A stretch of DNA of 64,000 nt from Squalus acanthias. Taxonomy: Eukaryota. The stretch spans positions 260,524,001-260,588,000 of the forward strand of contig CM059425.1 of NCBI GenBank assembly GCA_030390025.1, read 5' to 3'. The notes under the pieces are model-generated. The model was given only the letters and a program-made list of their open reading frames with translations. It was not told the origin of the DNA and ran no database searches. The first letter of the stretch is position 1. Each line of letters opens with the position of its first letter. The translations under genes and the position numbers were made by a program. Below, piece by piece: positions 33,618 to 61,200 of this stretch.

Positions 33618-36600
33618 TTGATAACGGGGGGTTTGTGTTTTTGATAATGGAGGGTTTGTGTTTTTGATAACGGAGGGTTTGTGTTTTTGATAACGGGGGG
33701 TTTGTGTTTTTGATAACGGAGGGTTTGTGTTTTTGATAACGGAGGGTTTCTGTTTTTGATAAAGGAGGGTTTGTGTTTTTGATAAAGCAGGGTTTGGGTT
33801 TTTGATAATGGAGGGTTTGTGTTTTTGATAAAGGAGGGTTTGGGTTTTTGATAAAGGAGAGTTTGTGTTTTTGATAATGGAGGGTTTGTGTTTTTGATAA
33901 AGGAGGGTTTGGGTTTTTGATAAAGCAGGGTTTGGGTTTTTGATAATGGAGGGTTTGTGTTTTTGATAAAGGAGGGTTTGGGTTTTTGATAAAGCAGGGT
34001 TTGGGTTTTTGATAATGGAGGGTTTGTGTTTTTGATAACGGGGGGTTTGTGTTTTTGATAACGGGGGGTTTGTGTTTTTGATAACGGGGGGTTTGTGTTT
34101 TTGATAACGGGGGGTTTGTGTTTTTGATAACGGGGGGTTTGTGTTTTTGATAAAGGAGGGTTTGTGTTTTTGATAACGGGGGGTTTGTGTTTTTGATAAC
34201 GGAGGGTTTGTGTTTTTGATAATGGAGGGTTTGTGTTTTTGATAACGGAGGGTTTGGGTTTTTGATAACGGGGGGTTTGTGTTTTTCATAATGGAGGGTT
34301 TGTGTTTTTGATAACGGAGGGTTTGTGTTTTTGATAATGGAGGGTTTGTGTTTTTGATAATGGAGGGTTTGTGTTTTTGATAATGGAGGGTTTGTGTTTT
34401 TGATAAGGGAGGGTTTGTGTTTTTGATAACAGAGGGTTTGTGTTTTTGATAACGGAGGGTTTGTGTTTTTGATAACGGAGGGTTTGTGTTTTTGATAACG
34501 GAGGGTTTGTGTTTTTGATAATGGAGAGTTTGTGTTTTTGATAAGGGAGGGTTTGTGTTTTTGATAATGGAGGGTTTGTGTTTTTGATAAGGGAGGGTTT
34601 GTGTTTTTGATAACAGAGGGTTTGTGTTTTTGATAATGGAGGGTTTGTGTTTTTGATAATGGAGGGTTTGGGTTTTTGATAATGGAGGGTTTGGGTTTTT
34701 GATAAAGGAGGGTTTGTGTTTTTGATAACGGAGGGTTTGGGTTTTTGATAATGGAGGGTTTGTGTTTATGATAACGGAGGGTTTGGGGTTTTGATAACGG
34801 AGGGTTTGTGTTTTTGATAACAGAGGGTTTGTGTTTTTGATAACGGAGGGTTTGTGTTTTTGATAACGGAGGGTTTGTGTTTTTGATAACGGAGGGTTTG
34901 TGTTTTTGATAACGGGGGTTTGTGTTTTTGATAATGGAGGGTTTGTGTTTTAGATAACGGAGGGTTTCTGTTTTTGATAAAGGAGGGTTTGGGTTTTTGA
35001 TAAAGGAGGGTTTGGGTTTTTGATAATGGAGAGTTTGTGTTTTTGATAATGGAGGGTTTGTGTTTTTGATAAAGGAGGGTTTGGGTTTTTGATAATGGAG
35101 GGTTTGTGTTTTTGATAACGTGGGGTTTGTGTTTTTGATAACGGGGGTTTGTGTTTTTGATAACGGGGGTTTGGGTTTTTGATAAAGCAGGGTTTGTGTT
35201 ATTGATAATGGAGGGTTTGTGTTTTTGATAATGGAGGGTTTGTGTTTATGATAATGGAGGGTTTGGGTTTTTGATAATGGAGGGTTTGTGTTTATGATAA
35301 CGGAGGGTTTGGGGTTTTGATAATGGAGGGTTTGTGTTTTTGATAACGGAGGGTTTGTGTTTTTGATAACGGAGGGTTTGTGTTTTTGATAATGGAGGGT
35401 TTGTGTTTTTGATAATGGAGGGTTTGTGTTTTTGATAATGGAGGGTTTGTGTTTTTGATAACAGAGGGTTTGTGTTTTTGATAACGGAGGGTTTGTGTTT
35501 TTGATAACGGAGGGTTTGTGTTTTTGATAATGGAGGGTTTGTGTTTTTGATAACGGAGAGTTTGTGTTTTTGATAACGGGGGGTTTGTGTTTTTGATAAT
35601 GGAGGGTTTGTGTTTTTGATAATGGAGGGTTTGTGTTTTTGATAATGGAGGGTTTGTGTTTTTGATAACGGAGGGTTTGTGTTTTTGATAACGGAGGGTT
35701 TGTGTTTTTGATAACGGGGGGTTTGTGTTTTTGATAACGGGGGTTTGTGTTTTTGATAACGGGGGGTTTGTGTTTTTGATAACGGAGGGTTTGGGTTTTT
35801 GATAACGGGGCTTTTGTGTTTTTGATAATGGGGGGTTTGTGTTTTTGATAACAGAGGGTTTGTGTTTTTGATAACGGAGGGTTTGTGTTTATGATAACGG
35901 AGGGTTTGTCTTTTTGATAATGGAGGGTTTGTGTTTTTGATAACGGGGGTTTGTGTTTTTGATAACGGGGGTTTGTGTTTTTGATAAAGGAGGGTTTGTG
36001 TTTTTGATAATGGAGGGTTTGTGTTTTGGATAATGGAGGGTTTGTGTTTTTGATAACGGGGGGTTTGTGTTTTTGATAACGGAGGGTTTGTGTTTTTGAT
36101 AACGAGGGGTTTGTGTTTTGGATAATGGAGAGTTTGTGTTTTTGATAATGGAGGGTTTGTGTTTTTGATAATGGAGGGTTTGGGTTTTTGATAAAGGAGT
36201 GTTTGGGTTTTTGATAATGGAGGGTTTGTGTTTTTGATAAAGGAGGGTTTGTGTTTTTGGTAATGGAGGGTTTGTGTTTTTGATAACGGAGTGTTAGTGT
36301 TTTTGATAACGGAGGGTTTGTGTTTTTGATAATGGAGGGTTTTTGTTTTTGATAAAGGAGGGTTTGGGTTTTTGATAATGGAGGGTTTGAGTTTTTGATA
36401 ATGGAGGGTTTGGGTTTTTGATAATGGAGGGTTTGGGTTTTTGATAATGGAGGGTTTGGGTTTTTGATAATGGAGGGTTTGTGTTTTTGATAATGGAGGG
36501 TTTGTGTTTTTGATAATGGAGGGTTTGTGTTTTTGATAATGGAGGGTTTGTGTTTTTGATAACGGAGGGTTTGTGTTTTTGATAACGGAGGGTTTGTGTT

Positions 36601-37879
36601 TTTGATAACGGGGGGTTTGTGTTTTTGATAATGGAGGGTTTGTGTTTTTGATAATGGAGGGTTTGTGTTTTTGATAACGGGGGGTTTGTGTTTTTGATAA
36701 CGGGGGGTTTGTGTTTTTGATAACGGGGGGTTTGTGTTTTTGATAATGGAGGGTTTGAGTTTTTGATAATGGAGGGTTTGTGTTTTTGATAAAGGAGGGT
36801 TTGTGTTTTTGATAACGGAGGGTTTGTGTTTTTGATAACGGAGGGTTTGTGTTTTTGATAACGGGGGGTTTGTGTTTTTGACAACGGAGGGTTTGTGTTT
36901 TTGATAACGGGGGGTTTGTGTTTTTGATAATGGAGGGTTTGTGTTTTTGATAATGGAGGGTTTGTGTTTTTGATAACGGGGGGTTTGTGTTTTTGATAAC
37001 GGGGGGTTTGTGTTTTTGATAACGCTGGGTTTGTGTTTTTGACAACGGAGGGTTTGGGTTTTTGATAACGGGGGGTTTGTGTTTTTGATAACGAGGGGTT
37101 TGTGTTTTTGATAACGGAGGGTTTGTGTTTTTGATAACGGAGGGTTTGTGTTTTTGATAACGGGGGATTTGTGTTTTGGATAATGGAGGGTTTGTGTTTT
37201 TGATAATGGAGGGTTTGTGTTTTTGATAACGGAGGGTTTGTGTTTTTGATAACAGAGGGTTTGTGTTTTTGATAATGGAGGGTTTGTGTTTTTGATAACG
37301 GAGGGTTTGTGCTTTTGATAATGGAGGGTTTGTGTTTTTGATAACGGAGGGTTTGTGTTTTTGATAATGGAGGGTTTGTGTTTTTGATAACGGAGAGTTT
37401 GTGTTTTTGATAATGGGGGGTTTGTGTTTTTGATAATGGAGGGTTTGTGTTTTTGATAACGGAGGGTTTGTGTTTTTGATAATGGAGTGTTTGTGTTTTT
37501 GATAATGGAGGGTTTGTGTTTTTGATAACGGAGATTTTTTTTTTGATAAAGGAGGGTTTGTGTTTTTGATAACGGAGGGTTTGCGTTTTTGATAATGGAG
37601 GGTTTGCGTTTTTGATAAAGGAGGGTTTGTGTTTTTGATATGGAGGGTTTGTGTTTTTGATAACGGGGGGTTTGTGTTTTTGATAACGGAGGGTTTGTGT
37701 TTTTGATAACGGAGGGTTTGTGTTTTTGACAACGGAGGGTTAGTGTTTTTGATAACGGAGGGTTTGTGTTTTTGATAATGGAGGGTTTGTGTTTTTGATA
37801 AAGGAGGGTTTGGGTTTTTGATAATGGAGGGTTTGAGTTTTTGATAAAGGCGGGTTTGGGTTTTTGATAACGGAGGCTT
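33618..37879. repeat. 23-bp satellite array, block 1
   Basis: Tandem GATAAYGGAGGGTTTGTGTTTTT with point variants. Confidence 0.98.
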
Positions 37880-38236
37880 GGGGTAGAAATTAGGTCGCGC
37901 CCCATTTGGGGCGCAAATATCGTCCGCGCGCAAATATTAGCGCCTGGCGCTAATTATCGGCACTGACAGGAAACTTCACTTTTACCGCCCCGGGAGGTGA
38001 GTGGAGCACTAAATTAGGCGCTGCACACCTCTCTTAAGGCGCAAAGGCCTAGGAGTGAGGCGCTACCTCAGCGCACGAGCGCAGCGCAGCTGCTGCCAGT
38101 TAGCGAGGGAACACAGACACACTGGCGCCGGACACTTCTTAAAGCGGGGGGGGCCACTTGCTCCCCAGCCACACCCTGCTCATTGCAGCCTTGAATCTCA
38201 GCCTGGAGAGACCTGTAATCCATTTTGCTGCCAAGC

Positions 38237-40115
38237 ATGGAGAGGGTGAGAGAACGCGCTCATCGCTTCACCGAGCGGGCCTTGGATGCTCTGGTTGACG
38301 CAGTGGAGCGCAGACGATGCATGCTGTTCCCGGAGAGTGGCAGGAGGCCTTTGCCACGCGAGTTCAGAAGAGTGTGGAGGGAGGTGGCTCAGAGCGTCTC
38401 CTCCAGGAGCATGGTGCCCAGGACCCATGTTCAGTGCCGCAAAAAGTTCAACGACCTCACTCGGGTCGTCAGGGTGAGTGGCTTTTTCTCAATACCTCTC
38501 CATCCCTCCATCTCAACCTCACTCTATGGCCAGAGGGTCTTAAAACCCCAATGCACAACACTCATGCAACACCTATGGCCCTTTCATCAAACACACACAC
38601 ACATTCCACACTTTGCATACAGTAAGGGCTATTCACCTATGGGAGGCACATCAGGCAAGACCATGGCTGCATATTGTAAGGGCTATTCACCTATGGGAGG
38701 CACATCAGGCAAGACCATGGCTGTATATTGACTCAGATGCTGTCCTTTTTCTTGCAGGCTAAGCTGGCTCATAATCGGAGACAGCAGCAACGGACGGGTG
38801 GAGGGCGGCTTCAGCTGCAACCCCTCAGCGATCTGGAGGAGCGCGTCCACAGGATTGTGGCAAGCCGGGTGATCGGTCCCGTCGCCACTGGAGACGCCGA
38901 CCCCGTTTTGTCCTCTGTCCTTCCACTTGTCCCTCACAATACCAGCCTTTGACACTTTCAATCCAACTTGCTAACTCGCTGCACTTATTCCTCCCTTACT
39001 GCCACCCTGTCCTCACGCTAAAGCCACTCTTGTACCTCCCTGCTTTCAGATGGTGATTCACCAGCTGAGGAGATGGTCCCTGAAGCTGCCACTGGGAGTG
39101 ATGCTGCAGCTGAGGAGGAAGAGGAAGCCGGAGCATCAGTGCCACCCTCTCCCGAGGAAGCCCATGGCCACACTGGGAACACGCCTTCCCCGGAGGGGAG
39201 CAGGGGGGAAGGGGCTGATGATGGTGAAGTTCCAGGACCCAGCGGGCTGCAGCAACGCCATTGGGGGGGGAGGGAAGAACGGGGGAGCAGGGGGGAAGGG
39301 GCTGATGATGGTGAAGCTCCAGGACCCAGCGGGCTGCAGCCACGCCATGGGGGGGGAGGGAAGAACGGGAGCCTTCTCCCCAGAGGGAGAGTATGCCAGA
39401 CACTCCTAATGCAATGGACGCAGAGGAGGAGCGGCTGATTGCAGAAATGAACAGCCAGGCGGTGGGCATGCACACTGAGCTCATGGGTGCAGTGGGAAGG
39501 GTGCCCGAATGCATTGAGGCACTGGCAAGGAGTGTGGAGCACTTCGCTGTAGCACAGGCGGATGCCACACTAAAGCTTAGTGCTGCAATTCAGTCACTGG
39601 CTGCCAGGAACCCATCTGAGACTGCTCTCATGCAGACTCAGATTGAGGCAACGCGAGCACTGACTGCTGCCATCCTCGATGGTTCGTGCACATGTCCCCG
39701 GGGCTGTCACCGCGCCGCAGCAGGCCAGCAATCTGTTCTCCGGCAAATTGCTCCGGATGCTGAAGTGCTGCCCCGTGGGAGTGCCAGTGTGTCGGGCGAG
39801 CAGGGAGTTGCTGTCCTCTCTCACGATGACAGCATTCCTGCTGCCAACACTGTCACTTCTCCACTGCACTTGCCACCGCCTGTAGGACAGACTGCTGCCG
39901 CCCATGCAGAGTTGGTGCAGTCTGCAGCCGGGCCCTCCAGGCCCAGAAGTGGTCGAGGCCGTCCTTCAGGGGCATCTGCAGTGTCAGGGTCTGACAAGCA
40001 GCAGCCTTCCACCAGCCTTGCTGCAGCCACTGAGGTCCCATTACGGAGGAGCAGTAGGGTTAGAAGGGGGGAAGTGCGCAAGGGAAGGAGATCACCCTCG
40101 AAGGGCAAAAAGTAG
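38237..40115 (+). CDS. Harbinger Myb/SANT-like DNA-binding protein, 3 exons (38237-38473, 38758-~38905, 39050-40115); exon 3 frameshifted in this copy
   Basis: RFTERALDALVDAV...WREVA...RTHVQCRKKFNDL Myb/SANT motif; donor AGG|gtgagt; acceptors ttgcag| and tttcag|. G8 at 39349-39356 versus G9 in copy 2 breaks the frame. Confidence 0.82.
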
Positions 40116-40409
40116 GAGGTGTGCCAAAATGCTGGTCATTTTTTTATTAAAGGCCGAGGTTCATGGCCCAACTTTTGTTTAGTGTTTTGGACATTATCTC
40201 CAGGTTGTGAGAACCAGTTATGTTATTGACTGTTTTTTTGTGTTTATTTCTATGAGTTTGTCATGAGGAATTGACACACACAGAGTTTGTACAATAAATA
40301 AGTTTCTGTATTCAAAATATACATGGCTGGTGGTTGGAATTATTGGTGCCTTGGCCGGCTTAGGGGTTGCGTGCTGGGTTGATTCGTGTTTGTAGCACTG
40401 GCAGGGGCC

Positions 40410-41570
40410 CTAGAAGCGGCTTGCTATTAGTCGTTGACGGACGGCCCTTGCAGTTTGACCATTGTGGGCCGCCCTCCTGCCTTGGTGCTGCTGCTGATCA
40501 TCGTCCTCGGCCTGTTCCTCCTCTTCCTCCTCCTCCTCTTGTGGTGCTGCAAGGCCTGGTGGCATTGGCTGCGTCCTGAGGATTGCCATGTTGTGCAACA
40601 TGCAGCACACCACTACGAATTTGGAAACTTGCTCAGGCGAGTACTGCAGGGCTCCTCCGGAATGGTCCAGACAGCGGAATCGTTGTTTGAGCACGCCGAT
40701 TGTGCGCTCAATAATGTTCCTGGTTGCTTGTTGGCTTTCCTGGTACCGCAGCTCAGCAGGGGTGTTTGGCGCACGGAGCGGTGTCATCAGCCAGGTGCTC
40801 AATGCGTACCCCTTGTCCCCCAGAAGCCAACCAACTGGCTGATGCGGTGCCTCGAAAATTTCTGCCACAGTACTCTGGCGCAGGATGAAAGCATCGTGGC
40901 AGCTGCCCGGATAGTGGGCATTGACAGCGAGAATCACCTGTCTGTGGTCACAGACCAACTGCACATTCAAGGAATGGAACCCCTTTCTGTTCCGGAACTC
41001 CTCTGCATTCTCTCGCGGAGCACGCAAAGCCACATGCGTGCAGTCAATGGCGCCCTGCACCATGGGGAAGCCCGCTACCCTCGCAAAGCCCATAGCACGG
41101 TCATGCTGCTTGTCTGGGGTCATAGGGAAGGAGATGAAGTCTCGTCTCCTTGTGAAGAGGGCATTGGTGACCTGCCGGATGCAGCGATGCACCGCAAACT
41201 GGGAGATATTGGCGAGGTCCCCAACAGCAGCTTGGAATGAGCCAGTGGCGTAGAAGTTCAAAGCCACTGTGACCTTCACTGCCACCGACAGAGACGTCCT
41301 GGACCTCAGCTGAGGCTGCAGATCTGGCTGCAGCAGGTGGCAGAGCTCAGTGACCACCTCCTTGCTGAATCGCAGCCTTCGCAAACACAGCTCCTCGGAC
41401 ATGTGGATGTAGGAGAGCTGTTCACGATATACCCTGGGAGGGTAAGCTCTCCTGTACATGCGCCTGATGGCCCTCCTCCGTCTGGCCATCATTGCCACTC
41501 TCTGTCTGCGTCTCACCATCCTCCGATTGAGCTGGAGCAGGACGACGCCCCCAATCATTGCAGCCCCCAT
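40410..41570 (-). CDS. Harbinger (HARBI1-like) DDE transposase, 386 aa, intact
   Basis: HTH region (ALNFYATGSFQ..VGDLANISQ), GAIDCTH, NRKGFHSLNVQ, PGSCHDA, GDKGY and IERTIGVLKQRF. Confidence 0.95.
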   Translation of the reverse strand: MGAAMIGGVVLLQLNRRMVRRRQRVAMMARRRRAIRRMYRRAYPPRVYREQLSYIHMSEELCLRRLRFSKEVVTELCHLLQPDLQPQLRSRTSLSVAVKVTVALNFYATGSFQAAVGDLANISQFAVHRCIRQVTNALFTRRRDFISFPMTPDKQHDRAMGFARVAGFPMVQGAIDCTHVALRAPRENAEEFRNRKGFHSLNVQLVCDHRQVILAVNAHYPGSCHDAFILRQSTVAEIFEAPHQPVGWLLGDKGYALSTWLMTPLRAPNTPAELRYQESQQATRNIIERTIGVLKQRFRCLDHSGGALQYSPEQVSKFVVVCCMLHNMAILRTQPMPPGLAAPQEEEEEEEEQAEDDDQQQHQGRRAAHNGQTARAVRQRLIASRF

Positions 41571-42082
41571 ATTCTCTTTGCCAGAAAAGTAATGAGGTAC
41601 AGCAACGAAAGTAGCAGCAAACTTAGGATGAACTAGGCAAAACTACCTCACAAAGCGTTGAGTCAATGTAGAAGTCTCTCTCTCTCTCTCTCCGAATCTC
41701 TCTCTCTCTCTCAGAACGAGTGGTGCATAAATGTCGACCACAGAAAAAGACAGGAAGAGGCCCCCTTTAAATAGCGCCCCCCCCAGCCCCACACCGATTG
41801 ATAGCGTTCCAGTCTTCCGGTCGTTGGAAGCGCCAGGCGGTAAGGCAGGGGGCGCCACTCAATTTCCGCTCCGGGGCGCCCCAAGGGCGTTGCACCACGG
41901 AATGACGTCACAATCTGCGCGCGCAGGTGGTCGCAGCGGTAAGTTTTAGCGCCGCCGCACAATCTCAAGTTAAGTTCTCGAGCGGCGCAAACAGCGCTGC
42001 GCCCGGGCGTTAGCGCCTTAACGCCCCATTAGCGCCCTTTTAAGGCGCTAACGGGAGGCGCAACCAACTGAATTTTTACCCC

Positions 42083-45042
42083 TTTGTGTTTTTGATAATG
42101 GAGGGTTTGGGTTTTTGATAACGGAGAGTTTGTTTTTTTGATAACGGGGGGTTTGTGTTTTTGATAATGGAGGGTTTGTGTTTTTGATAATGGAGGGTTT
42201 GTGTTTTTGATAACGGAGGGTTTGTGTTTTTGATAATGGAGTGTTTGTGTTTTTGATAATGGAGGGTTTGTGTTTTTGATAATGGAGGGTTTGGGTTTTT
42301 GATAATGGAGGGTTTGTGTTTTTGATAAAGGAGGGTGTGCGTTTTTGATAATGGAGGGTTTGTGTTTTTGATAATGGAGAGTTTGTGTTTATGATAACGG
42401 ACAGTTTGGGCTTTTGATAACGGGGGGTTAGTGTTTTTGATAACGGAGGGTTTGTGTTTTCGATAATGGAGGGTTTGTGTTTTTGATAATGGAGGGTTTG
42501 TGTTTTTGATAATGGCGGGTTTCTGTTTTTAATAACGGGGGGTTTGTGTTTTTGATAACGGGGGGTTTGTGTTTTTAATAACGGGGGGTTTGTGTTTTTG
42601 ATAATGGCGGGTTTCTGTTTTTAATAACGGGGGGTTTGTGTTTTTGATAATGGCGGGTTTCTGTTTTTAATAACGGGGGGTTTGTGTTTTTGATAACGGG
42701 GGGTTTGTGTTTTTAATAACGGGGGGTTTGTGTTTTTGATAACGGGGGGGTTGTGTTTTTGATAACGGGGGCTTTGTGTTTTTGATAATGGAGGGTTTGT
42801 GTTTTTGATAACGGGGGTTTGTGTTTTTGATAACGGGGGGTTTGTGTTTTTGATAACGGAGGGTTTGGGTTTTTGATAACGGGGGGTTTGTGTTTTTGAT
42901 AACGGGGGGTTTGAGTTTTTGATAACGGGGGTTTGTGTTTTTGATAATGGAGGGTTTGTGTTTTTGATAAAGGAGGGTTTGGGTTTTTGATAAAGGATGG
43001 TTTGGGTTTTTGATAATGGAGAGTTTGTGTTTTTGATAATGGAGGGTTTGTGTTTTTGATAAAGGAGGTTTTGGGTTTTTGATAAAGGAGGGTTTGGGTT
43101 TTTGATAATGGAGGGTTTGTGTTTTTGATAATGGAGGGTTTGTGTTTATGATAACGGAGGGTTTGGGGTTTTGATAATGGAGGGTTTGTGTTTTTGATAA
43201 CGGAGGGTTTGTGTTTTTGATAACGGAGGGTTTGTGTTTTTGATAACAGAGGGTTTGTGTTTTTGATAATGGAGGGTTTGTGATTTTGATAACAGAGGGT
43301 TTGTGTTTTTGATAACGGAGGGTTTGTGTTTTTGATAACGGAGGGTTTGTGTTTTTGATAACAGAGGGTTTGTGTTTTTGATAATGGAGGGTTTGTGTTT
43401 TTCATAATAGAGGGTTTGTGTTTTTGATAACGGAGAGTTTGTGTTTTTGATAATGGGGGGTTTGTGTTTTTGATAATGGAGGGTTTGTGTTTTTGATAAT
43501 GGAGAGTTTGGGTTTTTGATAATGGGGGTTTGTGTTTTTGATAACGGAGGGTTTGTGTTTTTGATAATGGGGGTTTGTGTTTTTGATAATGGAGAGTTTG
43601 GGTTTTTGATAATGGAGGGTTTGTGTTTTTGAAAACGGAGGGTGTTATTTTGAAAAAGGAGGGTTTGTGTTTTTGATAACGGAGGGTTTGTGTTTTTGAT
43701 AATGGAGTGTTTGTGTTTTTGATAATGGAGAGTTTGGGTTTTTGATAATGGAGGGTTTGTGTTTTTGATAATGGAGGGTTTGTGTTTTTGATAATGGAGA
43801 GTTTGGGTTTTTGATAATGGAGTGTTTGTGTTTTTGATAACGGAGAGTTTGGGTTTTTGATAATGGAGGGTTTGTGTTTTTGATAACGGAGGTTTTTTTT
43901 TGATAAAGTAGGGTTTGTGTTTTTGATAACGGAGGGTTTGTGTTTTTGATAAAGGAGGGTTTGTGTTTTTGATAATGGAGGGTTTGTGTTTTTGCTAACG
44001 GAGGGTTTGTGTTTTTGATAACGGAGGGTTAGTGTTTTTGATAACGGAGGGTATGTGTTTTTGATAATGGAGGGTTTGTGTTTTTGATAAAGGAGGGTTT
44101 TGGTTTTTGATAATGGAGGGTTTGTGTTTTTGATAATGGAGGGTTTGGGTTTTTGATAATGGAGGGTTTGTGTTATTGATAATGGAGGGTTTGGCTTTTT
44201 GATAATGGAGGGTTTATGTTTTTGATAAAGGCGGGTTTGGGTTTTTGATAACGGAGGGTTTGTGTTTTTGATAACGGAGGGTTTGTGTTTTTGATAACGG
44301 GGGGTTTGTGTTTTTGATAACGGAGGGTTTGTGTTTTTGATAATGGAGGGTTTGTGTTTTTGATAATGGAGAGTTTGTGTTTTTGATAACGGGGGGGTTT
44401 GTGTTTTTGATTATGGTCGGTTTGTGTTTATGATAATGGATGGTTTGGGTTTTCAATAATGGAGGGTTTGTATTTTTGATAATGGAGGGTTTGTGTTTAT
44501 GATAATGGAGGGTTTGTATTTTTGATAATGGAGGGTTTGTGTTTATGATAATGGAGGGTTTGGGTTTTTGATAATGGAGGGTTTGTGTTTTTGATAACGG
44601 AGGGTTTGTGTTTTTGATAATGGAGGGTTTGTGTTTTTGATAATGGAGGGTTTGGGTTTTTGATAATGGAGGGTTTGGGTTTTTGATAAAGGAGGGTTTG
44701 TGTTTTTGATAACGGAGGGTTTGGGTTTTTGATAATGGAGGGTTTGTGTTTATGATAACGGAGGGTTTGGGGTTTTGATAATGGAGGGTTTGTGTTTTTG
44801 ATATGGAGGGTTTGTGTTTTTGATAACGGGGGGTTTGTGTTTTTGATAACGGAGGGTTTGTGTTTTTGATAACGGAGGGTTTGTGTTTTTGACAACGGAG
44901 GGTTAGTGTTTTTGATAACGGAGGGTTTGTGTTTTTGATAATGGAGGGTTTGTGTTTTTGATAAAGGAGGGTTTGGGTTTTTGATAATGGAGGGTTTGAG
45001 TTTTTGATAAAGGCGGGTTTGGGTTTTTGATAACGGAGGCTT
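42083..45042. repeat. 23-bp satellite array, block 2
   Basis: Same unit, between the two transposons. Confidence 0.98.
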
Positions 45043-45399
45043 GGGGTAGAAATTAGGTCGCGCCCCATTTGGGGCGCAAATATCGTCCGCGCGCAAATAT
45101 TAGCGCCTGGCGCTAATTATCGGCACTGACAGGAAACTTCACTTTTACCGCCCCGGGAGGTGAGTGGAGCGCTAAATTAGGCGCTGCACACCTCTCTTAA
45201 GGCGCAAAGGCCTAGGAGTGAGGCGCTACCTCAGCGCACGAGCGCAGCGCAGCTGCTGCCAGTTAGCGAGGGAACACAGACACACTGGCGCCGGACACTT
45301 CTTAAAGCGGGGGGGGCCACTTGCTCCCCAGCCACACCCTGCTCATTGCAGCCTTGAATCTCAGCCTGGAGAGACCTGTAATCCATTTTGCTGCCAAGC

Positions 45400-47279
45400 A
45401 TGGAGAGGGTGAGAGAACGCGCTCATCGCTTCACCGAGCGGGCCTTGGATGCTCTGGTTGACGCAGTGGAGCGCAGACGATGCATGCTGTTCCCGGAGAG
45501 TGGCAGGAGGCCTTTGCCACGCGAGTTCAGAAGAGTGTGGAGGGAGGTGGCTCAGAGCGTCTCCTCCAGGAGCATGGTGCCCAGGACCCATGTTCAGTGC
45601 CGCAAAAAGTTCAACGACCTCACTCGGGTCGTCAGGGTGAGTGGCTTTTTCTCAATACCTCTCCATCCCTCCATCTCAACCTCACTCTATGGCCAGAGGG
45701 TCTTAAAACCCCAATGCACAACACTCATGCAACACCTATGGCCCTTTCATCAAACACACACACACATTCCACACTTTGCATACAGTAAGGGCTATTCACC
45801 TATGGGAGGCACATCAGGCAAGACCATGGCTGCATATTGTAAGGGCTATTCACCTATGGGAGGCACATCAGGCAAGACCATGGCTGTATATTGACTCAGA
45901 TGCTGTCCTTTTTCTTGCAGGCTAAGCTGGCTCATAATCGGAGACAGCAGCAACGGACGGGTGGAGGGCGGCTTCAGCTGCAACCCCTCAGCGATCTGGA
46001 GGAGCGCGTCCACAGGATTGTGGCAAGCCGGGTGATCGGTCCCGTCGCCACTGGAGACGCCGACCCCGTTTTGTCCTCTGTCCTTCCACTTGTCCCTCAC
46101 AATACCAGCCTTTGACACTTTCAATCCAACTTGCTAACTCGCTGCACTTATTCCTCCCTTACTGCCACCCTGTCCTCACGCTAAAGCCACTCTTGTACCT
46201 CCCTGCTTTCAGATGGTGATTCACCAGCTGAGGAGATGGTCCCTGAAGCTGCCACTGGGAGTGATGCTGCAGCTGAGGAGGAAGAGGAAGCCGGAGCATC
46301 AGTGCCACCCTCTCCCGAGGAAGCCCATGGCCACACTGGGAACACGCCTTCCCCGGAGGGGAGCAGGGGGGAAGGGGCTGATGATGGTGAAGTTCCAGGA
46401 CCCAGCGGGCTGCAGCAACGCCATTGTGGGGGGAGGGAAGAACGGGGGAGCAGGGGGGAAGGGGCTGATGATGGTGAAGCTCCAGGACCCAGCGGGCTGC
46501 AGCCACGCCATGGGGGGGGGAGGGAAGAACGGGAGCCTTCTCCCCAGAGGGAGAGTATGCCAGACACTCCTAATGCAATGGACGCAGAGGAGGAGCGGCT
46601 GATTGCAGAAATGAACAGCCAGGCGGTGGGCATGCACACTGAGCTCATGGGTGCAGTGGGAAGGGTGCCCGAATGCATTGAGGCACTGGCAAGGAGTGTG
46701 GAGCACTTCGCTGTAGCACAGGCGGATGCCACACTAAAGCTTAGTGCTGCAATTCAGTCACTGGCTGCCAGGAACCCATCTGAGACTGCTCTCATGCAGA
46801 CTCAGATTGAGGCCACGCGAGCACTGACTGCTGCCATCCTCGATGGTTCGTGCACATGTCCCCGGGGCTGTCACCGCGCCGCAGCAGGCCAGCAATCTGT
46901 TCTCCGGCAAATTGCTCCGGATGCTGAAGTGCTGCCCCGTGGGAGTGCCAGTGTGTCGGGCGAGCAGGGAGTTGCTGTCCTCTCTCACGATGACAGCATT
47001 CCTGCTGCCAACACTGTCACTTCTCCACTGCACTTGCCACCGCCTGTAGGACAGACTGCTGCCGCCCATGCAGAGTTGGTGCAGTCTGCAGCCGGGCCCT
47101 CCAGGCCCAGAAGTGGTCGAGGCCGTCCTTCAGGGGCATCTGCAGTGTCAGGGTCTGACAAGCAGCAGCCTTCCACCAGCCTTGCTGCAGCCACTGAGGT
47201 CCCATTACGGAGGAGCAGTAGGGTTAGAAGGGGGGAAGTGCGCAAGGGAAGGAGATCACCCTCGAAGGGCAAAAAGTAG
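45400..47279 (+). CDS. Harbinger Myb/SANT-like protein, 3 exons (45400-45636, 45921-~46068, 46213-47279); exon 3 open
   Basis: As in copy 1, with exon 3 continuous (ORF 46236-47279) and ending in a basic NLS-like tail RRSSRVRR...KGKK. Confidence 0.85.
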
Positions 47280-47573
47280 GAGGTGTGCCAAAATGCTGGT
47301 CATTTTTTTATTAAAGGCCGAGGTTCATGGCCCAACTTTTGTTTAGTGTTTTGGACATTATCTCCAGGTTGTGAGAACCAGTTATGTTATTGACTGTTTT
47401 TTTGTGTTTATTTCTATGAGTTTGTCATGAGGAATTGACACACACAGAGTTTGTACAATAAATAAGTTTCTGTATTCAAAATATACATGGCTGGTGGTTG
47501 GAATTATTGGTGCCTTGGCCGGCTTAGGGGTTGCGTGCTGGGTTGATTCGTGTTTGTAGCACTGGCAGGGGCC

Positions 47574-48734
47574 CTAGAAGCGGCTTGCTATTAGTCGTTG
47601 ACGGACGGCCCTTGCAGTTTGACCATTGTGGGCCGCCCTCCTGCCTTGGTGCTGCTGCTGATCATCGTCCTCGGCCTGTTCCTCCTCTTCCTCCTCCTCC
47701 TCTTGTGGTGCTGCAAGGCCTGGTGGCATTGGCTGCGTCCTGAGGATTGCCATGTTGTGCAACATGCAGCACACCACTACGAATTTGGAAACTTGCTCAG
47801 GCGAGTACTGCAGGGCTCCTCCGGAATGGTCCAGACAGCGGAATCGTTGTTTGAGCACGCCGATTGTGCGCTCAATAATGTTCCTGGTTGCTTGTTGGCT
47901 TTCCTGGTACCGCAGCTCAGCAGGGGTGTTTGGCGCACGGAGCGGTGTCATCAGCCAGGTGCTCAATGCGTACCCCTTGTCCCCCAGAAGCCAACCAACT
48001 GGCTGATGCGGTGCCTCGAAAATTTCTGCCACAGTACTCTGGCGCAGGATGAAAGCATCGTGGCAGCTGCCCGGATAGTGGGCATTGACAGCGAGAATCA
48101 CCTGTCTGTGGTCACAGACCAACTGCACATTCAAGGAATGGAACCCCTTTCTGTTCCGGAACTCCTCTGCATTCTCTCGCGGAGCACGCAAAGCCACATG
48201 CGTGCAGTCAATGGCGCCCTGCACCATGGGGAAGCCCGCTACCCTCGCAAAGCCCATAGCACGGTCATGCTGCTTGTCTGGGGTCATAGGGAAGGAGATG
48301 AAGTCTCGTCTCCTTGTGAAGAGGGCATTGGTGACCTGCCGGATGCAGCGATGCACCGCAAACTGGGAGATATTGGCGAGGTCCCCAACAGCAGCTTGGA
48401 ATGAGCCAGTGGCGTAGAAGTTCAAAGCCACTGTGACCTTCACTGCCACCGACAGAGACGTCCTGGACCTCAGCTGAGGCTGCAGATCTGGCTGCAGCAG
48501 GTGGCAGAGCTCAGTGACCACCTCCTTGCTGAATCGCAGCCTTCGCAAACACAGCTCCTCGGACATGTGGATGTAGGAGAGCTGTTCACGATATACCCTG
48601 GGAGGGTAAGCTCTCCTGTACATGCGCCTGATGGCCCTCCTCCGTCTGGCCATCATTGCCACTCTCTGTCTGCGTCTCACCATCCTCCGATTGAGCTGGA
48701 GCAGGACGACGCCCCCAATCATTGCAGCCCCCAT
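47574..48734 (-). CDS. Harbinger (HARBI1-like) DDE transposase, 386 aa, intact
   Basis: Translation identical to 40410-41570. Confidence 0.95.
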   Translation of the reverse strand: MGAAMIGGVVLLQLNRRMVRRRQRVAMMARRRRAIRRMYRRAYPPRVYREQLSYIHMSEELCLRRLRFSKEVVTELCHLLQPDLQPQLRSRTSLSVAVKVTVALNFYATGSFQAAVGDLANISQFAVHRCIRQVTNALFTRRRDFISFPMTPDKQHDRAMGFARVAGFPMVQGAIDCTHVALRAPRENAEEFRNRKGFHSLNVQLVCDHRQVILAVNAHYPGSCHDAFILRQSTVAEIFEAPHQPVGWLLGDKGYALSTWLMTPLRAPNTPAELRYQESQQATRNIIERTIGVLKQRFRCLDHSGGALQYSPEQVSKFVVVCCMLHNMAILRTQPMPPGLAAPQEEEEEEEEQAEDDDQQQHQGRRAAHNGQTARAVRQRLIASRF

Positions 48735-49246
48735 ATTCTCTTTGCCAGAAAAGTAATGAGGTACAGCAACGAAAGTAGCAGCAAACTTAGGATGAACTAG
48801 GCAAAACTACCTCACAAAGCGTTGAGTCAATGTAGAAGTCTCTCTCTCTCTCTCTCCGAATCTCTCTCTCTCTCTCAGAACGAGTGGTGCATAAATGTCG
48901 ACCACAGAAAAAGACAGGAAGAGGCCCCCTTTAAATAGCGCCCCCCCCAGCCCCACACCGATTGATAGCGTTCCAGTCTTCCGGTCGTTGGAAGCGCCAG
49001 GCGGTAAGGCAGGGGGCGCCACTCAATTTCCGCTCCGGGGCGCCCCAAGGGCGTTGCACCACGGAATGACGTCACAATCTGCGCGCGCAGGTGGTCGCAG
49101 CGGTAAGTTTTAGCGCCGCCGCACAATCTCAAGTTAAGTTCTCGAGCGGCGCAAACAGCGCTGCGCCCGGGCGTTAGCGCCTTAACGCCCCATTAGCGCC
49201 CTTTTAAGGCGCTAACGGGAGGCGCAACCAACTGAATTTTTACCCC

Positions 49247-52200
49247 TTTGTGTTTTTGATAATGGAGGGTTTGGGTTTTTGATAATGGAGGGTTTCTGTT
49301 TATGATAATGGAGGGTTTGTGTTTATGATAATGGATGGTTTCGGTTTTTGATAATGGAGGGTTTGTATATTTGATAATGGAGGGTTTGTGTTTTTGATAA
49401 CGGAGGGTTTGTGTTTTTGATAATGGAGGGTTTGTGTTTTTGATAACGGAGAGTTTGTTTTTTTGATAACGGGGGGTTTGTGTTTTTGATAATGGAGGGT
49501 TTGTGTTTTTGATAATGGAGGGTTTGTGTTTTTGATAACGGAGGGTTTGTGTTTTTGATAATGGAGTGTTTGTGTTTTTGATAATGGAGGGTTTGTGTTT
49601 TTGATAATGGAGGGTTTGGGTTTTTGATAATGGAGGGTTTGTGTTTTTGATAAAGGAGGGTGTGCGTTTTTGATAATGGAGGGTTTGTGTTTTTGATAAT
49701 GGAGAGTTTGTGTTTATGATAACGGACAGTTTGGGCTTTTGATAACGGGGGGTTAGTGTTTTTGATAACGGAGGGTTTGTGTTTTCGATAATGGAGGGTT
49801 TGTGTTTTTGATAATGGAGGGTTTGTGTTTTTGATAATGGCGGGTTTCTGTTTTTAATAACGGGGGGTTTGTGTTTTTGATAACGGGGGGTTTGTGTTTT
49901 TAATAACGGGGGGTTTGTGTTTTTGATAATGGCGGGTTTCTGTTTTTAATAACGGGGGGTTTGTGTTTTTGATAATGGCGGGTTTCTGTTTTTAATAACG
50001 GGGGGTTTGTGTTTTTGATAACGGGGGGTTTGTGTTTTTAATAACGGGGGGTTTGTGTTTTTGATAACGGGGGGGTTGTGTTTTTGATAACGGGGGCTTT
50101 GTGTTTTTGATAATGGAGGGTTTGTGTTTTTGATAACGGGGGTTTGTGTTTTTGATAACGGGGGGTTTGTGTTTTTGATAACGGAGGGTTTGGGTTTTTG
50201 ATAACGGGGGGTTTGTGTTTTTGATAACGGGGGGTTTGAGTTTTTGATAACGGGGGGTTTGTGTTTTTGATAATGGAGGGTTTGTGTTTTTGATAAAGGA
50301 GGGTTTGGGTTTTTGATAAAGGATGGTTTGGGTTTTTGATAATGGAGAGTTTGTGTTTTTGATAATGGAGGGTTTGTGTTTTTGATAAAGGAGGTTTTGG
50401 GTTTTTGATAAAGGAGGGTTTGGGTTTTTGATAATGGAGGGTTTGTGTTTTTGATAATGGAGGGTTTGTGTTTATGATAACGGAGGGTTTGGGGTTTTGA
50501 TAATGGAGGGTTTGTGTTTTTGATAACGGAGGGTTTGTGTTTTTGATAACGGAGGGTTTGTGTTTTTGATAACAGAGGGTTTGTGTTTTTGATAATGGAG
50601 GGTTTGTGATTTTGATAACAGAGGGTTTGTGTTTTTGATAACGGAGGGTTTGTGTTTTTGATAACGGAGGGTTTGTGTTTTTGATAACAGAGGGTTTGTG
50701 TTTTTGATAATGGAGGGTTTGTGTTTTTCATAATAGAGGGTTTGTGTTTTTGATAACGGAGAGTTTGTGTTTTTGATAATGGGGGGTTTGTGTTTTTGAT
50801 AATGGAGGGTTTGTGTTTTTGATAATGGAGAGTTTGGGTTTTTGATAATGGGGGTTTGTGTTTTTGATAACGGAGGGTTTGTGTTTTTGATAATGGGGGT
50901 TTGTGTTTTTGATAATGGAGAGTTTGGGTTTTTGATAATGGAGGGTTTGTGTTTTTGATAACGGAGGGTGTTATTTTGAAAAAGGAGGGTTTGTGTTTTT
51001 GATAATGGAGTGTTTGTGTTTTTGATAATGGAGAGTTTGGGTTTTTGATAATGGAGGGTTTGTGTTTTTGATAATGGAGTGTTTGTGTTTTTGATAATGG
51101 AGAGTTTGGGTTTTTGATAATGGAGGGTTTGTGTTTTTGATAATGGAGGGTTTGTGTTTTTGATAATGGAGAGTTTGGGTTTTTGATAATGGAGGGTTTG
51201 TGTTTTTGATAACGGAGGGTTTGTGTTTTTGATAATGGAGAGTTTGGGTTTTTGATAATGGAGGGTTTGTGTTTTTGATAACGGAGGGTTTGTGTTTTTG
51301 ATAATGGAGTGTTTGTGTTTTTGATAATGGAGAGTTTGTGTTTTTGATAATGGGGGGTTTGTGTTTTTGATAATGGGGGTTTGTGTTTTTGATAATGGAG
51401 AGTTTGGGTTTTTGATAATGGAGGGTTTGTGTTTTTGATAACGGAGGGTGTTATTTTGATAAAGGAGGGTTTGTGTTTTTGATAACGGAGGGTTTTTTGT
51501 TTTTGATAATGGAGTGTTTGTGTTTTTGATAATGGAGAGTTTGGGTTTTTGATAATGGAGGGTTTGTGTTTTTGATAACGGAGGGTGTTATTTTGATAAA
51601 GGAGGGTTTGTGTTTTTGATAACGGAGGGTTTGTGTTTTTGATAATGGAGGGTTTGTGTTTATGATAACGGAGGTTTTTTTTTGATAAAGTAGGGTTTGT
51701 GTTTTTGATAACGGAGGGTGTGCGTTTTTGATAATGGAGGGTTTGTGTTTTTGATAATGGAGAGTTTGTGTTTATGATAACGGACAGTTTGGGTTTTTGA
51801 TAATGGAGGGTTTGTGTTTTCGATAATGGAGGGTTTGTGTTTTTGATAACGGAGGGTTTGTGTTTTTGATAACGGGGGGTTTGTGTTTTTGATAATGGAG
51901 GGTTTGTGTTTTCGATAATGGAGGGTTTGTGTTTTTGATAACGGAGGGTTTGTGTTTTTGATAATGTCGGGTTTCTGTTTTTGATAACGGGGGGTTTGTG
52001 TTTTTGATAACGGGGGGTTTGTGTTTTTAATAACGGGGGGTTTGTGTTTTTGATAATGGGGGGGTTGTGTTTTTGATAACGGGGGCTTTGTGTTTTTGAT
52101 AATGGAGGGTTTGTGTTTTTGATAACGGGGGTTTGTGTTTTTGATAACGGGGGGTTTGAGTTTTTGATAACGGGGGGTTTGTGTTTTTGATAATGGAGGG

Positions 52201-55200
52201 TTTGTGTTTTTGATAAAGGAGGGTTTGGGTTTTTGATAAAGGAGGGTTTGGGTTTTTGATAATGGAGAGTTTGTGTTTTTGATAATGGAGGGTTTGTGTT
52301 TTTGATAACGGAGGGTTTGTGTTTATGATAACGGAGGGTTTGTGTTTTTGATAATGGAGGGTTTGTGTTTTTGATAAATGAGAGTTTGTGTTTTTGATAA
52401 TGGGGGGTTTGTGTTTTTGATAATGGAGGGTTTGTGTTTTTGATAACGGAAGGTTTGTGTTTTTGATAATGGAGTGTTTGTGTTTTTGATAATGGAGAGT
52501 TTGGGTTTTTGATAATGGAGGGTTTGTGTTTTTGATAACGGAGGGTGTTTTTTTGATAAAGGAGGGTTTGTGTTTTTGATAACGGAGGGTTTGGGTTTTT
52601 GATAATGGCGGGTTTGTGTTTTTGATAAAGGAGGGTTTGTGTTTTTGATAATGGAGGGTTTGGGGTTTTGATAACGGAGGGTTTGTGATTTTGATAACGG
52701 AGGGTTTGTGTTTTTGATAACGGAGGGTTTGTGTTTTTGATAATGGAGGGTTTGTGTTTTTGATAAATGAGGGTTTGCGTTTTTGATAATGGAGGGTTTG
52801 TGTTTTTGATAATGGAGGGTTTGGGTTTTTGATAATGGAGGGTTTGTGTTTTTGATAATGGAGGGTTTGTGTTTTTGATAAAGGCGGGTTTGGGTTTTTT
52901 ATAATGGAGGGTTTGTGTTTTTGATAATGGAGGGTTTGGGTTTTTGATAATGGAGGGTTTGTGTTTATGATAACGGAGGGTTTGTGTTTTTGATAACGGA
53001 GGGTGTTTTTTTGATAAAGGAGGGTTTGTGTTTTTGATAACGGAGGGTTTGGGTTTTTGATAATGGAGGGTTTGTGTTTTTGATAAAGGAGGATTTGTGT
53101 TTTTGATAATGGAGGGTTTGGGGTTTTGATAATGGAGGGTTTGTGATTTTGATAACGGAGGGTTTGTGTTTTTGATAACGGAGAGTTTGTGTTTTTGATA
53201 ACGGAGGGTTTGTGTTTTTGATAATGGAGGTTTTTTTTTTGATAAAGGAGGGTTTGTGTTTTTGATAAAGGAGGATTTGTGTTTTTGATAATGGAGGGTT
53301 TGGGGTTTTGATAACGGAGGGTTAGTGTTTATGATAACGGAGGGTTTGTGTTTTTGATAACGGAGGGTTTGTGTTTTTGATAATGGAGGTTTTGTGTTTT
53401 TGATAACGGAGAGTTTGTGTTTTTGATAACGGAGGGTTTGTGTTTTTGATAATGGAGGTTTTTTTTTGATAAAGGAGTGTTTGTGTATTTGATAACGGAG
53501 GGTTTGTGTTTTTGATAACGGAGGGTTTGTGTTTATGATAACGGAGGGTTTGTGTTTTTGATAATGGAGCGTTTGTGTTTTTGATAACGGAGAGTTTGTT
53601 TTTTTGATAACGGGGGGTTTGTGTTTTTGATAATGGAGGGTTTGTGTTTTTGATAAAGGAGGTTTTTTTTTGATAAAGTAGGGTTTGTGTTTTTGATAAC
53701 GGAGGGTTTGTGTTTTTGATAAAGGAGGGTTTGGGTTTTTGATAATGGAGGGTTTGTGTTTTTGATAAAGGAGGTTTTTTTTTTGATAAAGTAGGGTTTG
53801 TGTTTTTGATAACGGAGGGTTTGTGTTTTTGATAAAGGAGGGTTTGTGTTTTTGATAATGGAGGGTTTGTGTTTTTGCTAATGGAGGGTTTGTGTTTTTG
53901 ATAACGGAGGGTTAGTGTTTTTGATAACGGAGGGTTTGTGTTTTTGATAATGGAGGGTTTGTGTTTTTGATAAAGGAGGGTGTGCGTTTTTGATAATGGA
54001 GGGTTTGTGTTTTTGATAATGGAGAGTTTGTGTTTATGATAACGGACAGTTTGGGTTTTTGATAATGGAGGGTTTGTGTTTTCGATAATGGAGGGGTTGT
54101 GTTTTTGATAATGGCGGGTTTCTGTTTTTGATAACGGGGGGTTTGTGTTTTTGATAACGGGGGGTTTGTGTTTTTAATAACGGGGGGTTTGTGTTTTTGA
54201 TAATGGGGGGGTTGTGTTTTTGATAACGGGGGCTTTGTGTTTTTGATAATGGAGGGTTTGTGTTTTTGATAACGGGGGTTTGTGTTTTTGATAACGGGGG
54301 GTTTGAGTTTTTGATAACGGAGGGTTTGTGTTTTTGATAACGGGGGGTTTGTGTTTTTGATAATGGAGGGTTTGTGTTTTTGATAAAGGAGGGTTTGGGT
54401 TTTTGATAAAGGAGGGTTTGGGTTTTTGATAATGGAGAGTTTGTGTTTTTGATAATGGAGGGTTTGTGTTTTTGATAAAGGAGGTTTTGGGTTTTTGATA
54501 AAGGAGGGTTTGGGTTTTTGATAATGGAGGGTTTGTGTTTTTGATAATGGAGGGTTTGTGTTTATGATAACGGAGGGTTTGGGGTTTTGATAATGGAGGG
54601 TTTGTGTTTTTGATAACGGAGGGTTTGTGTTTTTGATAATGGAGGGTTTGTGATTTTGATAACAGAGGGTTTGTGTTTTTGATAATGGGGGGTTTGTGTT
54701 TTTGATAATGGAGGGTTTGTGTTTTTGATAATGGAGGGTTTGTGTTATTGATAACGGAAGGTTTGTGTTTTTGATAATGGAGTGTTTGTGTTTTTGATAA
54801 TGGAGAGTTTGGGTTTTTGATAATGGAGGGTTTGTGTTTTTGATAACGGAGGGTGTTTTTTTGATAAAGGAGGGTTTGTGTTTTTGATAACGGAGGGTTT
54901 GGGTTTTTGATAATGGAGGGTTTGTGTTTTTGATAAAGGAGGGTTTGTGTTTTTGATAACGGAGGGTTTGGGGTTTTGATAACGGAGGGTTTGTGATTTT
55001 GATAACGGAGGGTTTGTGTTTTTGATAACGGAGGGTTTGTGTTTTTGATAATGGAGGGTTTGTGTTTTTGATAAATGAGGGTTTGCGTTTTTGATAATGG
55101 AGGGTTTGTGTTTTTGATAATGGAGGGTTTGGGTTTTTGATAACGGAGGGTTTGTGTTTTTGATAACGGAGGGTTTGTGTTTTTGATAATGGAGGGTTTG

Positions 55201-58200: not shown

Positions 58201-61200
58201 TGTTTTTGATAATGGAGGGTTTGTGTTTTTGATAACGGAGGTTTAGTGTTTTTGATAACGGAGGGTTTGTGTTTTTGATAATGGAGGGTTTGTGTTTTTG
58301 ATAATGGAGGGTTTGGGTTTTTGATAACTGAGTGCTTGTGTTTTTGAAAACGGGGGTTTGTGTTTTTGATAACTGAGGGTTTGTGTTTATGATAACGGAG
58401 GGTTTGTGTTTTTGATAACGGAGGGTTTGTGTTTTTGATAACGGAGAGTTTGTGTTTTTGATAACGGAGGGTTTGTGTTTTTGATAACGGAGGGTTTGTG
58501 TTTTTGATAACGGAGGGTTTGTGTTTTTGATAACGGAGGGTTTGTGTTTTTGATAATGGAGGGTTTGGATATTTGATAATGGAGGGTTTGTGTTTTTGAT
58601 AATGGAGGGTTTGGATTTTTGATAACGGAGGGTTTGGGTTTTTGATAACGGAGGGTTTGTGTTTTAGATAAGGGAGGGTTTGTGTTTTTGATAACGGGGG
58701 GTTTGTGTTTTTGATAACGGAGGGTTTGTGTTTTTGATAACGGGGGGTTTGTGTTTTTCATAACGGAGAGTTTGGGTTTTTGATAATGGAGGGTTTGGGT
58801 TTTTGATAATGGAGGGTTTGTGTTTTTGATAAAGGAGGGTTTGTGATTTTGATAACGGGGGTTTGTGTTTTTGATAATGGAGGGTTTGTGTTTTTGATAA
58901 CGGGGGGTTTGTGTTTTTCATAACGGAGAGTTTGGGTTTTTGATAATGGAGGGTTTGTGTTTTTGATAATGGAGGGTTTGTGTTTTTGATAATGGAGGGT
59001 TTGTGTTTTTCATAATGGAGAGTTTGGGTTTTTGATAATGGAGGGTTTGTTTTTTTGATAATGGAGGGTTTGGATTTTTGATAACGGAGGGTTTGGGCTT
59101 TTGATAACGGAGGGTTTGTGTTTTTGATAAAGGAGGGTTTGTGTTTTTGATAAAGGAGGGTGTGCGTTTTTGATAATGGAGGGTTTGTGTTTTTGATAAT
59201 GGAGAGTTTGTGTTTATGATAACGGACAGTTTGGGTTTTTGATAACGGGGGGTTTGTTTTTTTGATAACGGGGGGTTTGTGTTTTTAATAACGGGGGGTT
59301 TGTGTTTTTGATAATGGGGGGGTTGTGTTTTTGATAACGGGGGCTTTGTGTTTTTGATAATGGAGGGTTTGTGTTTTTGATAACGGGGGTTTGTGTTTTT
59401 GATAACGGGGGGTTTGAGTTTTTGATAACGGAGGGTTTGTGTTTTTGATAACGGGGGGTTTGTGTTTTTGATAATGGAGGGTTTGTGTTTTTGATAAAGG
59501 TGGGTTTGGGTTTTTGATAAAGGAGGGTTTGGGTTTTTGATAATGGAGAGTTTGTGTTTTTGATAATGGAGGGTTTGTGTTTTTGATAATGGAGAGTTTG
59601 GGTTTTTGATAATGGAGGGTTTGTGTTTTTGATAATGGAGGGTTTGTGTTTTTGATAATGGAGAGTTTGGGTTTTTGATAATGGAGGGTTTGTGTTTTTG
59701 ATAATGGAGGGTTTGTGTTATTGATAATGGAGGGTTTGTGTTTATGATAACGGAGGGTTTGGGGTTTTGATAATGGAGGGTTTGTGTTTTTGATAACGGA
59801 GGGTTTGTGTTTTTGATAACGGAGGGTTTGTGTTTTTGATAACGGAGGGTATGTGCTTTTGATAATGGAGGGTTTGTGTTTTTGATAACGGAGGGTTTGT
59901 GTTTTTGATAATGGAGGGTTTGTGATTTTGATAACAGAGGGTTTGTGTTTTTGATAATGGGGGGTTTGTGTTTTTGATAATGGGGGGTTTGTGTTTTTGA
60001 TAATGGAGGGTTTGTGTTTTTGATAATGGAGGGTTTGTGTTATTGATAACGGAAGGTTTGTGTTTTTGATAATGGAGTGTTTGTGTTTTTGATAATGGAG
60101 AGTTTGGGTTTTTGATAATGGAGGGTTTGTGTTTTTGATAAAGGAGGGTTTGTGTTTTTGATAACGGAGAGTTTGTGTTTTTGATAACGGAGGGTTTGTG
60201 TTTTTGATAACGGAGGGTTTGTGTTTTTGATAACGGAGGGTTTGTGTTTTTGATAACGGAGGGTTTGTGTTTTTGATAATGGAGGGTTTGGATATTTGAT
60301 AATGGAGGGTTTGTGTTTTTGATAATGGAGGGTTTGGATTTTTGATAACGGAGGGTTTGGGTTTTTGATAACGGAGGGTTTGTGTTTTAGATAAGGGAGG
60401 GTTTGTGTTTTTGATAACGGGGGGTTTGTGTTTTTGATAACGGAGGGTTTGTGTTTTTGATAACGGGGGGTTTGTGTTTTTCATAACGGAGAGTTTGGGT
60501 TTTTGATAATGGAGGGTTTGGGTTTTTGATAATGGAGGGTTTGTGTTTTTGATAAAGGAGGGTTTGTGATTTTGATAACGGGGGTTTGTGTTTTTGATAA
60601 TGGAGGGTTTGTGTTTTTGATAACGGGGGGTTTGTGTTTTTCATAATGGAGGGTTTGTGTTTTTGATAATGGAGGGTTTGTGTTTTTCATAATGGAGAGT
60701 TTGGGTTTTTCATAATGGAGGGTTTGTGTTTTTGATAATGGAGGGTTTGTGTTTTTCATAATGGAGAGTTTGGGTTTTTGATAATGGAGGGTTTGTTTTT
60801 TTGATAATGGAGGGTTTGGATTTTTGATAACGGAGGGTTTGGGCTTTTGATAACGGAGGGTTTGTGTTTTTGATAAAGGAGGGTTTGTGTTTTTGATAAA
60901 GGAGGGTGTGCGTTTTTGATAATGGAGGGTTTGTGTTTTTGATAATGGAGAGTTTGTGTTTATGATAACGGACAGTTTGGGTTTTTGATAATGGAGGGTT
61001 TGTGTTTTCGATAATGGAGGGTTTGTGTTTTTGATAACGGAGGGTTTGTGATTTTGATAATGGCGGGTTTCTGTTTTTGATAACGGGGGGTTTGTGTTTT
61101 TGATAACGGGGGGTTTGTGTTTTTAATAACGGGGGGTTTGTGTTTTTGATAATGGGGGGGTTGTGTTTTTGATAACGGGGGCTTTGTGTTTTTGATAATG

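Follow-up and report, generated by a model that had tools for sequence, protein, structure and literature searches.

The window, a 64,000-nt stretch of Squalus acanthias contig CM059425.1 (assembly GCA_030390025.1, forward-strand positions 260,524,001 to 260,588,000), contains two full-length copies of a Harbinger DNA transposon embedded in a satellite of 23-bp units. The satellite spans position 33618 to the window end and is broken twice, by the elements E1 and E2 (Tandem Repeats Finder, TRF: period 23, 93% matches). E1 (37880..42082, + strand) is 4203 bp long, with palindromic subterminal motifs and 12-bp terminal inverted repeats (TIRs) that have one mismatch; E2 (45043..49246, + strand) is 4204 bp long, and its start and end are offset from those of E1 by 7163 and 7164 bp, respectively. 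Both copies sit in the same junction, in which ggaggctt precedes the GGGG...CCCC of the element and tttgtg follows it, as the initial annotation had described. Global alignment of E1 with E2 gives three substitutions and one homopolymer indel and nothing else: 38008A/45171G, 39264G/46427T, G8/G9 near 39349/46512, and 39650A/46814C. The initial annotation had listed these four differences, which is exact within the elements; a substitution at 43633/50959 and a G5/G6 indel at 42927/50252, both in the shared right flank, had been missed.

The identity of the two copies continues into the satellite, which was split into 963 units, partial ones counted, and is described here by TRF and monomer parse as left segment A (33618..37879, +; 188 units, starting at the unique/array boundary), middle segment B (42083..45042, +; 130 units) and right segment C (49247..64000, +; 645 units, continuing beyond the window). 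Left of both elements 260 bases are identical and include three unit types present nowhere else in the array; the 22-bp 'gatat' unit, already pointed out as a rare variant common to both flanks, is found among the 963 parsed units only at 37620 and 44783. Right of both elements, 39 identical bases are followed by seven extra units in copy 2 and then by 67 units of which 65 are identical; here lies the second rare variant named earlier, the 'acggacag' unit, at 42399 and 49724, on the diagonal 7325 = 7164 + 161, a shift of 161 bp. Duplicated block D1 extends over 37620..43679 (+; 6060 bp: the 260-bp left flank, E1, and ~1.6 kb of right flank), and D2 over 44783..51005 (+; 6223 bp, with the seven extra units after E2). 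Between the blocks, whose limits are sharp, are 1103 bp of unshared satellite (43680..44782, +), in which the units at 44230-44275 form an empty, older paralogue of the site of insertion. When units B69-B117 are compared in register, 6/49 match the left array and 5/49 the right array, the chance of identity for two random array units being 0.067; no near-identical match of the unshared 1.1 kb was found elsewhere in the window, and the best offset (18/49 units) is an older paralogue. The architecture is that of a ~6.1-kb block present twice; because the 1.1 kb of satellite between the copies is unshared, there is no ~7.2-kb transposon-plus-satellite unit of the kind initially proposed, and a clean 7163-bp tandem unit was rejected as 1103 of the 7163 bp of its period are unshared and only two copies exist. 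The amplification of the earlier wording amounts to two copies in the window. The duplicated arrangement does exist in the assembly, and probably in the genome too.

It is likely that a single insertion was later duplicated by out-of-register satellite recombination of the host. That one insertion was copied afterwards is well supported by the private flanks, the identical defective junction and the other recent block duplications of the array. The junction is defective in that its left and right parts add up to 25 nt in both E1 and E2, versus a 23-nt unit; the flanking bases are CTT before the element and TTT after it, a net gain of 2 bp in place of an exact target-site duplication (TSD) of 3 bp, from which we infer a 3-bp TSD minus one base of a homopolymer run. 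Block duplications without any element are found in the array at 758 bp and 666 bp with no differences, at 643 bp with one and at 528 bp with two, and segment C holds its own recent ones of 0.5-0.76 kb; only 134 of the 463,203 pairs of units, duplication-derived pairs included, show a run of at least 11 identical ones. Extended target preferences are described for vertebrate Harbingers (PMC2836001), and position 6 of the unit that took the insertion is a rare C, both of which would suit two independent insertions at the same unit phase, or insertion into satellite blocks duplicated beforehand; against this, the identical defective junction and the three private left-flank unit types are seen only beside both copies, and the older insertion-site paralogues at 44253 and 56128 are empty, consensus-like and devoid of the rare C. 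Neither a third element copy nor an empty site with the same C variant was found within the window. Since TAA is present 961 times in the 963 units, target choice does not explain the common site, and independent insertion is largely refuted and hardly credible.

In the favoured course of events, that of a single insertion duplicated by the host, a Harbinger of cartilaginous fish would have inserted once into the 23-bp array, as the common junction and flanks suggest, and a base would have gone missing from the junction then or afterwards. Host recombination, homology-directed and between units out of register, would subsequently have carried a copy of the element with 260 bp of its left and ~1.6 kb of its right flank (~6.1 kb in total) into the array ~1.1 kb further on, either as a synthesis-dependent gene-conversion tract or by unequal exchange between structurally different homologues; the transposase would be unneeded for this duplication, and the same process may have produced the element-free 0.5-0.76-kb blocks. 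The initial annotation is supported where it attributes the second copy to the host copying one insertion; its single unequal crossover into a 7.2-kb tandem is a misfit because 1.1 kb is unshared, and would require later remodelling, inter-homologue exchange or a conversion tract. Both ends follow in one step from a single conversion tract, and exchange between homologues with arrays that already differed fits equally well; sister exchange needs a later loss of 1.1 kb. As to polarity, the unit pair before 44782/44783 is followed by the consensus unit in 8/9 cases, this being the sole one where the 22-bp unit comes next, and the left context of copy 1 has the unit order of three older paralogues elsewhere; judged by unit order, the left junction at 44782/44783 looks newly formed and the left context of D1 looks ancestral. 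On this junction polarity, read from the older paralogues, copy 2 is probably the derived block.

Several points weigh against duplication by the host. An assembler join of two haplotypes gives the same sequence, and the 0.067% divergence is within allelic range; a one-step unequal crossover between sister chromatids predicts a complete tandem period, and none is seen; conversion and inter-homologue exchange are indistinguishable here; that copy 2 has a new right junction is weakly supported, the context being odd in 1/9 by a single C/T at a CpG; and loose homology runs ~12 units beyond 43679. Satellites are error-prone in assembly, and an artefact has to be considered in which two haplotypes that carry one insertion but differ in the structure of the array were strung together through the satellite. 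The blocks differ by 4 substitutions in 6015 bp, two homopolymer indels and one seven-unit indel; this number of substitutions is at or below the allelic level (12 expected at a nucleotide diversity, pi, of 0.002), and derived changes are found on both copies, as a haplotype join would have it. However, the sole gap in the window lies at 29286-29417 and there is none between E1 and E2, the join would hang on at most ~20 nt of one consensus unit, and exact matches of 666, 758 and 1161 bp suggest an accurate consensus, the reads behind which would normally span 11.4 kb; because of these three points the artefact is considered unlikely. Furthermore, the unshared 1.1 kb holds variants with genuine paralogues and is not a blend of both arrays.

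For the age of the blocks, the mutation rate of the epaulette shark is available, at 7e-10 per site per generation (95% confidence interval 1.4-14.1e-10), together with its pi of 0.002 (PMC10587355). At this rate, which belongs to another species, the divergence time of the blocks is ~4.8e5 generations (Poisson interval 1.3e5-1.2e6), a figure that consensus errors would shorten. Provided that the differences are genuine, every model makes the insertion ~4.8e5 generations old or older; if the homologue was the donor, the duplication may be much younger than the insertion.

The transposase of both copies is a 386-aa protein encoded by an intronless open reading frame (ORF) that is convergent with the Myb gene (E1, 40410..41570, - strand; E2, 47574..48734, - strand), and the DNA of the E2 ORF is identical to that of E1 over 1161 bp. 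The protein matches DDE_Tnp_4 in Pfam (PF13359, E 5e-38). A homologue search with it returned 373 matches, the named ones overwhelmingly from sharks and rays; because the best of them are only 60-66% identical (named 'putative nuclease HARBI1' in sawshark), the Harbinger family of E1 and E2 appears to be unrepresented among these sequences. The catalytic triad D176/D252/E288 is kept in both copies; among 120 matches listed, 109 cover all three sites and 53 of these have a complete DDE. The transposase departs from the consensus at 2/96 conserved columns, and none of 108 matches compared departs at fewer; the departures, N277Q and H280Q, are situated just upstream of the catalytic E, at positions where 104/120 and 94/120 of the matches listed have N and H, respectively. 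A PDB sequence search with the alignment gave only a chance match (E 0.95), which leaves N277Q and H280Q without placement on a solved structure. The transposase tree (59 rows of at least 330 aa, built in quick mode with the careful search unfinished and with no named reference elements) puts the protein among shark and ray matches with no strongly supported sister. The catalytic E is absent from many of the shark and ray 'putative nuclease HARBI1' proteins among the matches, and short-branch pairs across species are present (P0004/P0005, P0009/P0012, P0039/P0040); such pairs may be domesticated Harbinger genes.

The second gene of the element is of the Myb/SANT type. In E1 (38237..40115, + strand) exon 1 is at 38237-38473, exon 2 begins at 38758 and exon 3 at 39050; in E2 (45400..47279, + strand) exon 1 is at 45400-45636, exon 2 begins at 45921 and exon 3 spans 46213-47279. 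Exon 1 matches PF13873 (E 1.3e-9), and exon 3 gave no match in Pfam; homologues of the Myb protein numbered one in a word-indexed search and 74 in a representative search, 19 of which were compared, and the frames of exons 2 and 3 agree with those of homologues P0124, P0125 and P0126. All Myb exons are open in E2, whereas exon 3 of E1 is frameshifted at the G8 run near 39349, so that a stop is reached after 128 codons, where E2 stays open for 354; the E1 frameshift could be a consensus error. A scan of both copies for an exon-2 donor found no consensus GT near the exon 2 end in the needed phase 1. Two internal tandem duplications are common to E1 and E2, of 54 bp in Myb intron 1 and of 87 bp (29 codons) in exon 3 (located at 38614-38730 and 39195-39369); two of the four differences between the elements sit in G runs of the 87-bp repeat. 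The element had been called intact and autonomous, which covers the transposase only, owing to the exon 3 frameshift of E1 and the lack of a consensus phase-1 exon-2 donor in either copy. The further description as young and possibly active was overstated in view of the diverged copies, the Myb frameshift, the unassigned donor and the lack of a fresh 3-bp TSD.

An intact DDE transposase between TIRs could have triggered the duplication itself, by TIR cutting and sister-chromatid gap repair that was resolved out of register and left two copies with their flanks; the copied tract has the element at its centre, between short flanks, and intact TIRs have been proposed to raise the rates of breakage and exchange in tandems (10.1101/158386). 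However, the array forms block duplications in which no element takes part, the breakpoints are 260 bp and ~1.6 kb away from the TIRs rather than at them, the Myb partner is of doubtful integrity, and excision is described as usually precise in the Harbinger superfamily (PMC2836001); triggering by the transposase is thus improbable. There is likewise only a slim chance that copy 2 is a vertebrate Harbinger which is competent in its natural form and whose cutting provokes out-of-register repair, such that it gains copies by remodelling of the array; the vertebrate Harbinger assay in PMC2836001 used a reconstructed zebrafish element. If true, a self-cutting copy 2 would represent an early stage in the making of a higher-order repeat with a transposon inside it, in a cartilaginous fish.

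By the sequence of its transposase, Myb gene, TIRs and family TSD, the element is a Harbinger. The features that define PIF/Harbinger (PHIS) elements are present, namely the DDE triad, the Myb/SANT second gene and TIRs starting with A or G, and the 12-bp ends are also those of MITE1, a non-autonomous miniature inverted-repeat transposable element (MITE) of the same family (24336..25228, + strand; 893 bp, TSD TTA), which is inserted in a dispersed repeat and is 84%/93% identical to the ends of the full-length element, i.e., 7-16% diverged. MITE2 (7600..8340, - strand; 741 bp, TSD CAA) is of a related subfamily and is inserted in a fragment of a long interspersed nuclear element (LINE). Paralogues of the empty sites are available for MITE1 (20930-21060) and MITE2 (26255-26320), and with these controls both MITEs show exact 3-bp TSDs. 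A 2-bp family TSD of the ISL2EU type does not agree with the 3-bp TSDs of the two controlled MITEs, nor with a second gene that is Myb, and was rejected. Complete local TSDs are limited to two (C-TTA-A and C-CAA-G) plus one half site. The TSD consensus is given as TWA for PIF/Harbinger sensu stricto, CWG for NuwaI and C|TNA|G for NuwaII (PMC4482050); unlike in the PHIS definitions, the local TSDs TTA and CAA are not strictly TWA or CWG, and the satellite copies have no exact TSD. The element otherwise resembles Harbinger3_DR of zebrafish and NuwaI/II as these are described, with a length of ~4.2 kb, short TIRs starting with G, DDE_Tnp_4 and Myb/SANT genes, and MITEs with 3-bp TSDs (PMC4482050, PMC9179366, PMC2836001).

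Traces of related elements are seen elsewhere in the window. A decayed Harbinger-like remnant at 31700-33231 has a match to Myb exon 3 (32250-32384) and, at 33231, a TIR-like end with AAG after it, and abuts the same dispersed repeat as MITE1; the partner of this terminus was not found in the window. A further old Harbinger-like trace is present at 20320-20526 (- strand; Myb exon-1 match, 46% identity, E 2e-12), which is resembled by an ORF at 610-1137 (DNA match 805-951), and a lone TIR-like start is present at 17443.

Positions 1-33.6 kb are a decayed mosaic of retroelements, with RVT_1, endonuclease and GDSL-type ORF1 domains. An immunoglobulin (Ig) V-set exon at 2930-3427 (- strand; PF07686, E 5e-15) is the one stretch seen to resemble a host gene, possibly marking an immune-receptor cluster beside the array; an Rfam scan of the window gave 0 matches. 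A short sequence that may be a common shark dispersed repeat precedes the abrupt start of the satellite (33540-33620). The commonest variation among the satellite units is C/T at the last base, where C makes a CpG with the next unit, a pattern consistent with methylation-driven deamination. A recent higher-order periodicity of ~1.7-1.9 kb (75-82 units) is seen at 58420-63723, with exact blocks of 666-758 bp, and an older order of motifs, of ~80-100 units, recurs from 42330 on.

Copying of mobile elements after integration into satellites is already described, vertebrates included; the element copied in this window is of a less usual type. A Gypsy element in the wasp Anoplius, 11 LINEs in the bird Porphyrio and six retroviruses in red deer are each attributed to one integration followed by satellite copying (10.64898/2026.09.17.752431); like the present pair these are near-identical copies on the same strand, within satellite that has identical flanks or TSDs, whereas, as reported there, they are retroelements of 5-11 copies in centromeric satellites, compared with a class II Harbinger of two copies in a 23-bp satellite. 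For ATHILA in the CEN180 satellite of Arabidopsis five post-integration duplications are reported (10.1101/2021.05.30.446350); these too are non-adjacent duplicates of an insertion in an array, attributed to gene conversion or to a process that forms higher-order repeats, although ATHILA is a long-terminal-repeat retrotransposon, its host is a plant, and its copies are separated by 8.9-538 kb. Pokey, a piggyBac-type element of Daphnia ribosomal DNA, is likewise a DNA transposon whose copy number follows recombination of a host tandem array; it targets a specific 28S site and is recorded at 65-537 copies, in contrast to this satellite, for which targeting is undemonstrated (PMC12869080). In Drosophila, hobo is another cut-and-paste transposon that was multiplied locally, with unequal exchange proposed; the hobo array is traced to a head-to-tail dimer formed by double insertion, whereas here a pre-existing satellite provides the homology (10.1101/158386). 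Among cartilaginous fish, Harbinger is noted in the genomes of the grey reef shark (PMC12498223) and whale shark (PMC8455134), and in the account of PMC9179366 it is undetected in the elephant shark. A Harbinger duplicated in a vertebrate satellite was not found in the titles and abstract openings of papers listed by full-text searches, a scope that excludes most subscription journals, Repbase and supplements.

The significance of the locus is modest, because the process is already described and only two copies are present. The element is of use as a resource, as it provides an unusually well-preserved shark Harbinger transposase together with local MITEs that could serve as substrates in transposition assays. 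When transposon copies within an array are nearly identical, this does not indicate recent transposition; if real, the duplication would extend satellite copying to a class II element in cartilaginous fish, with the two breakpoints placed to within about one 23-bp unit.

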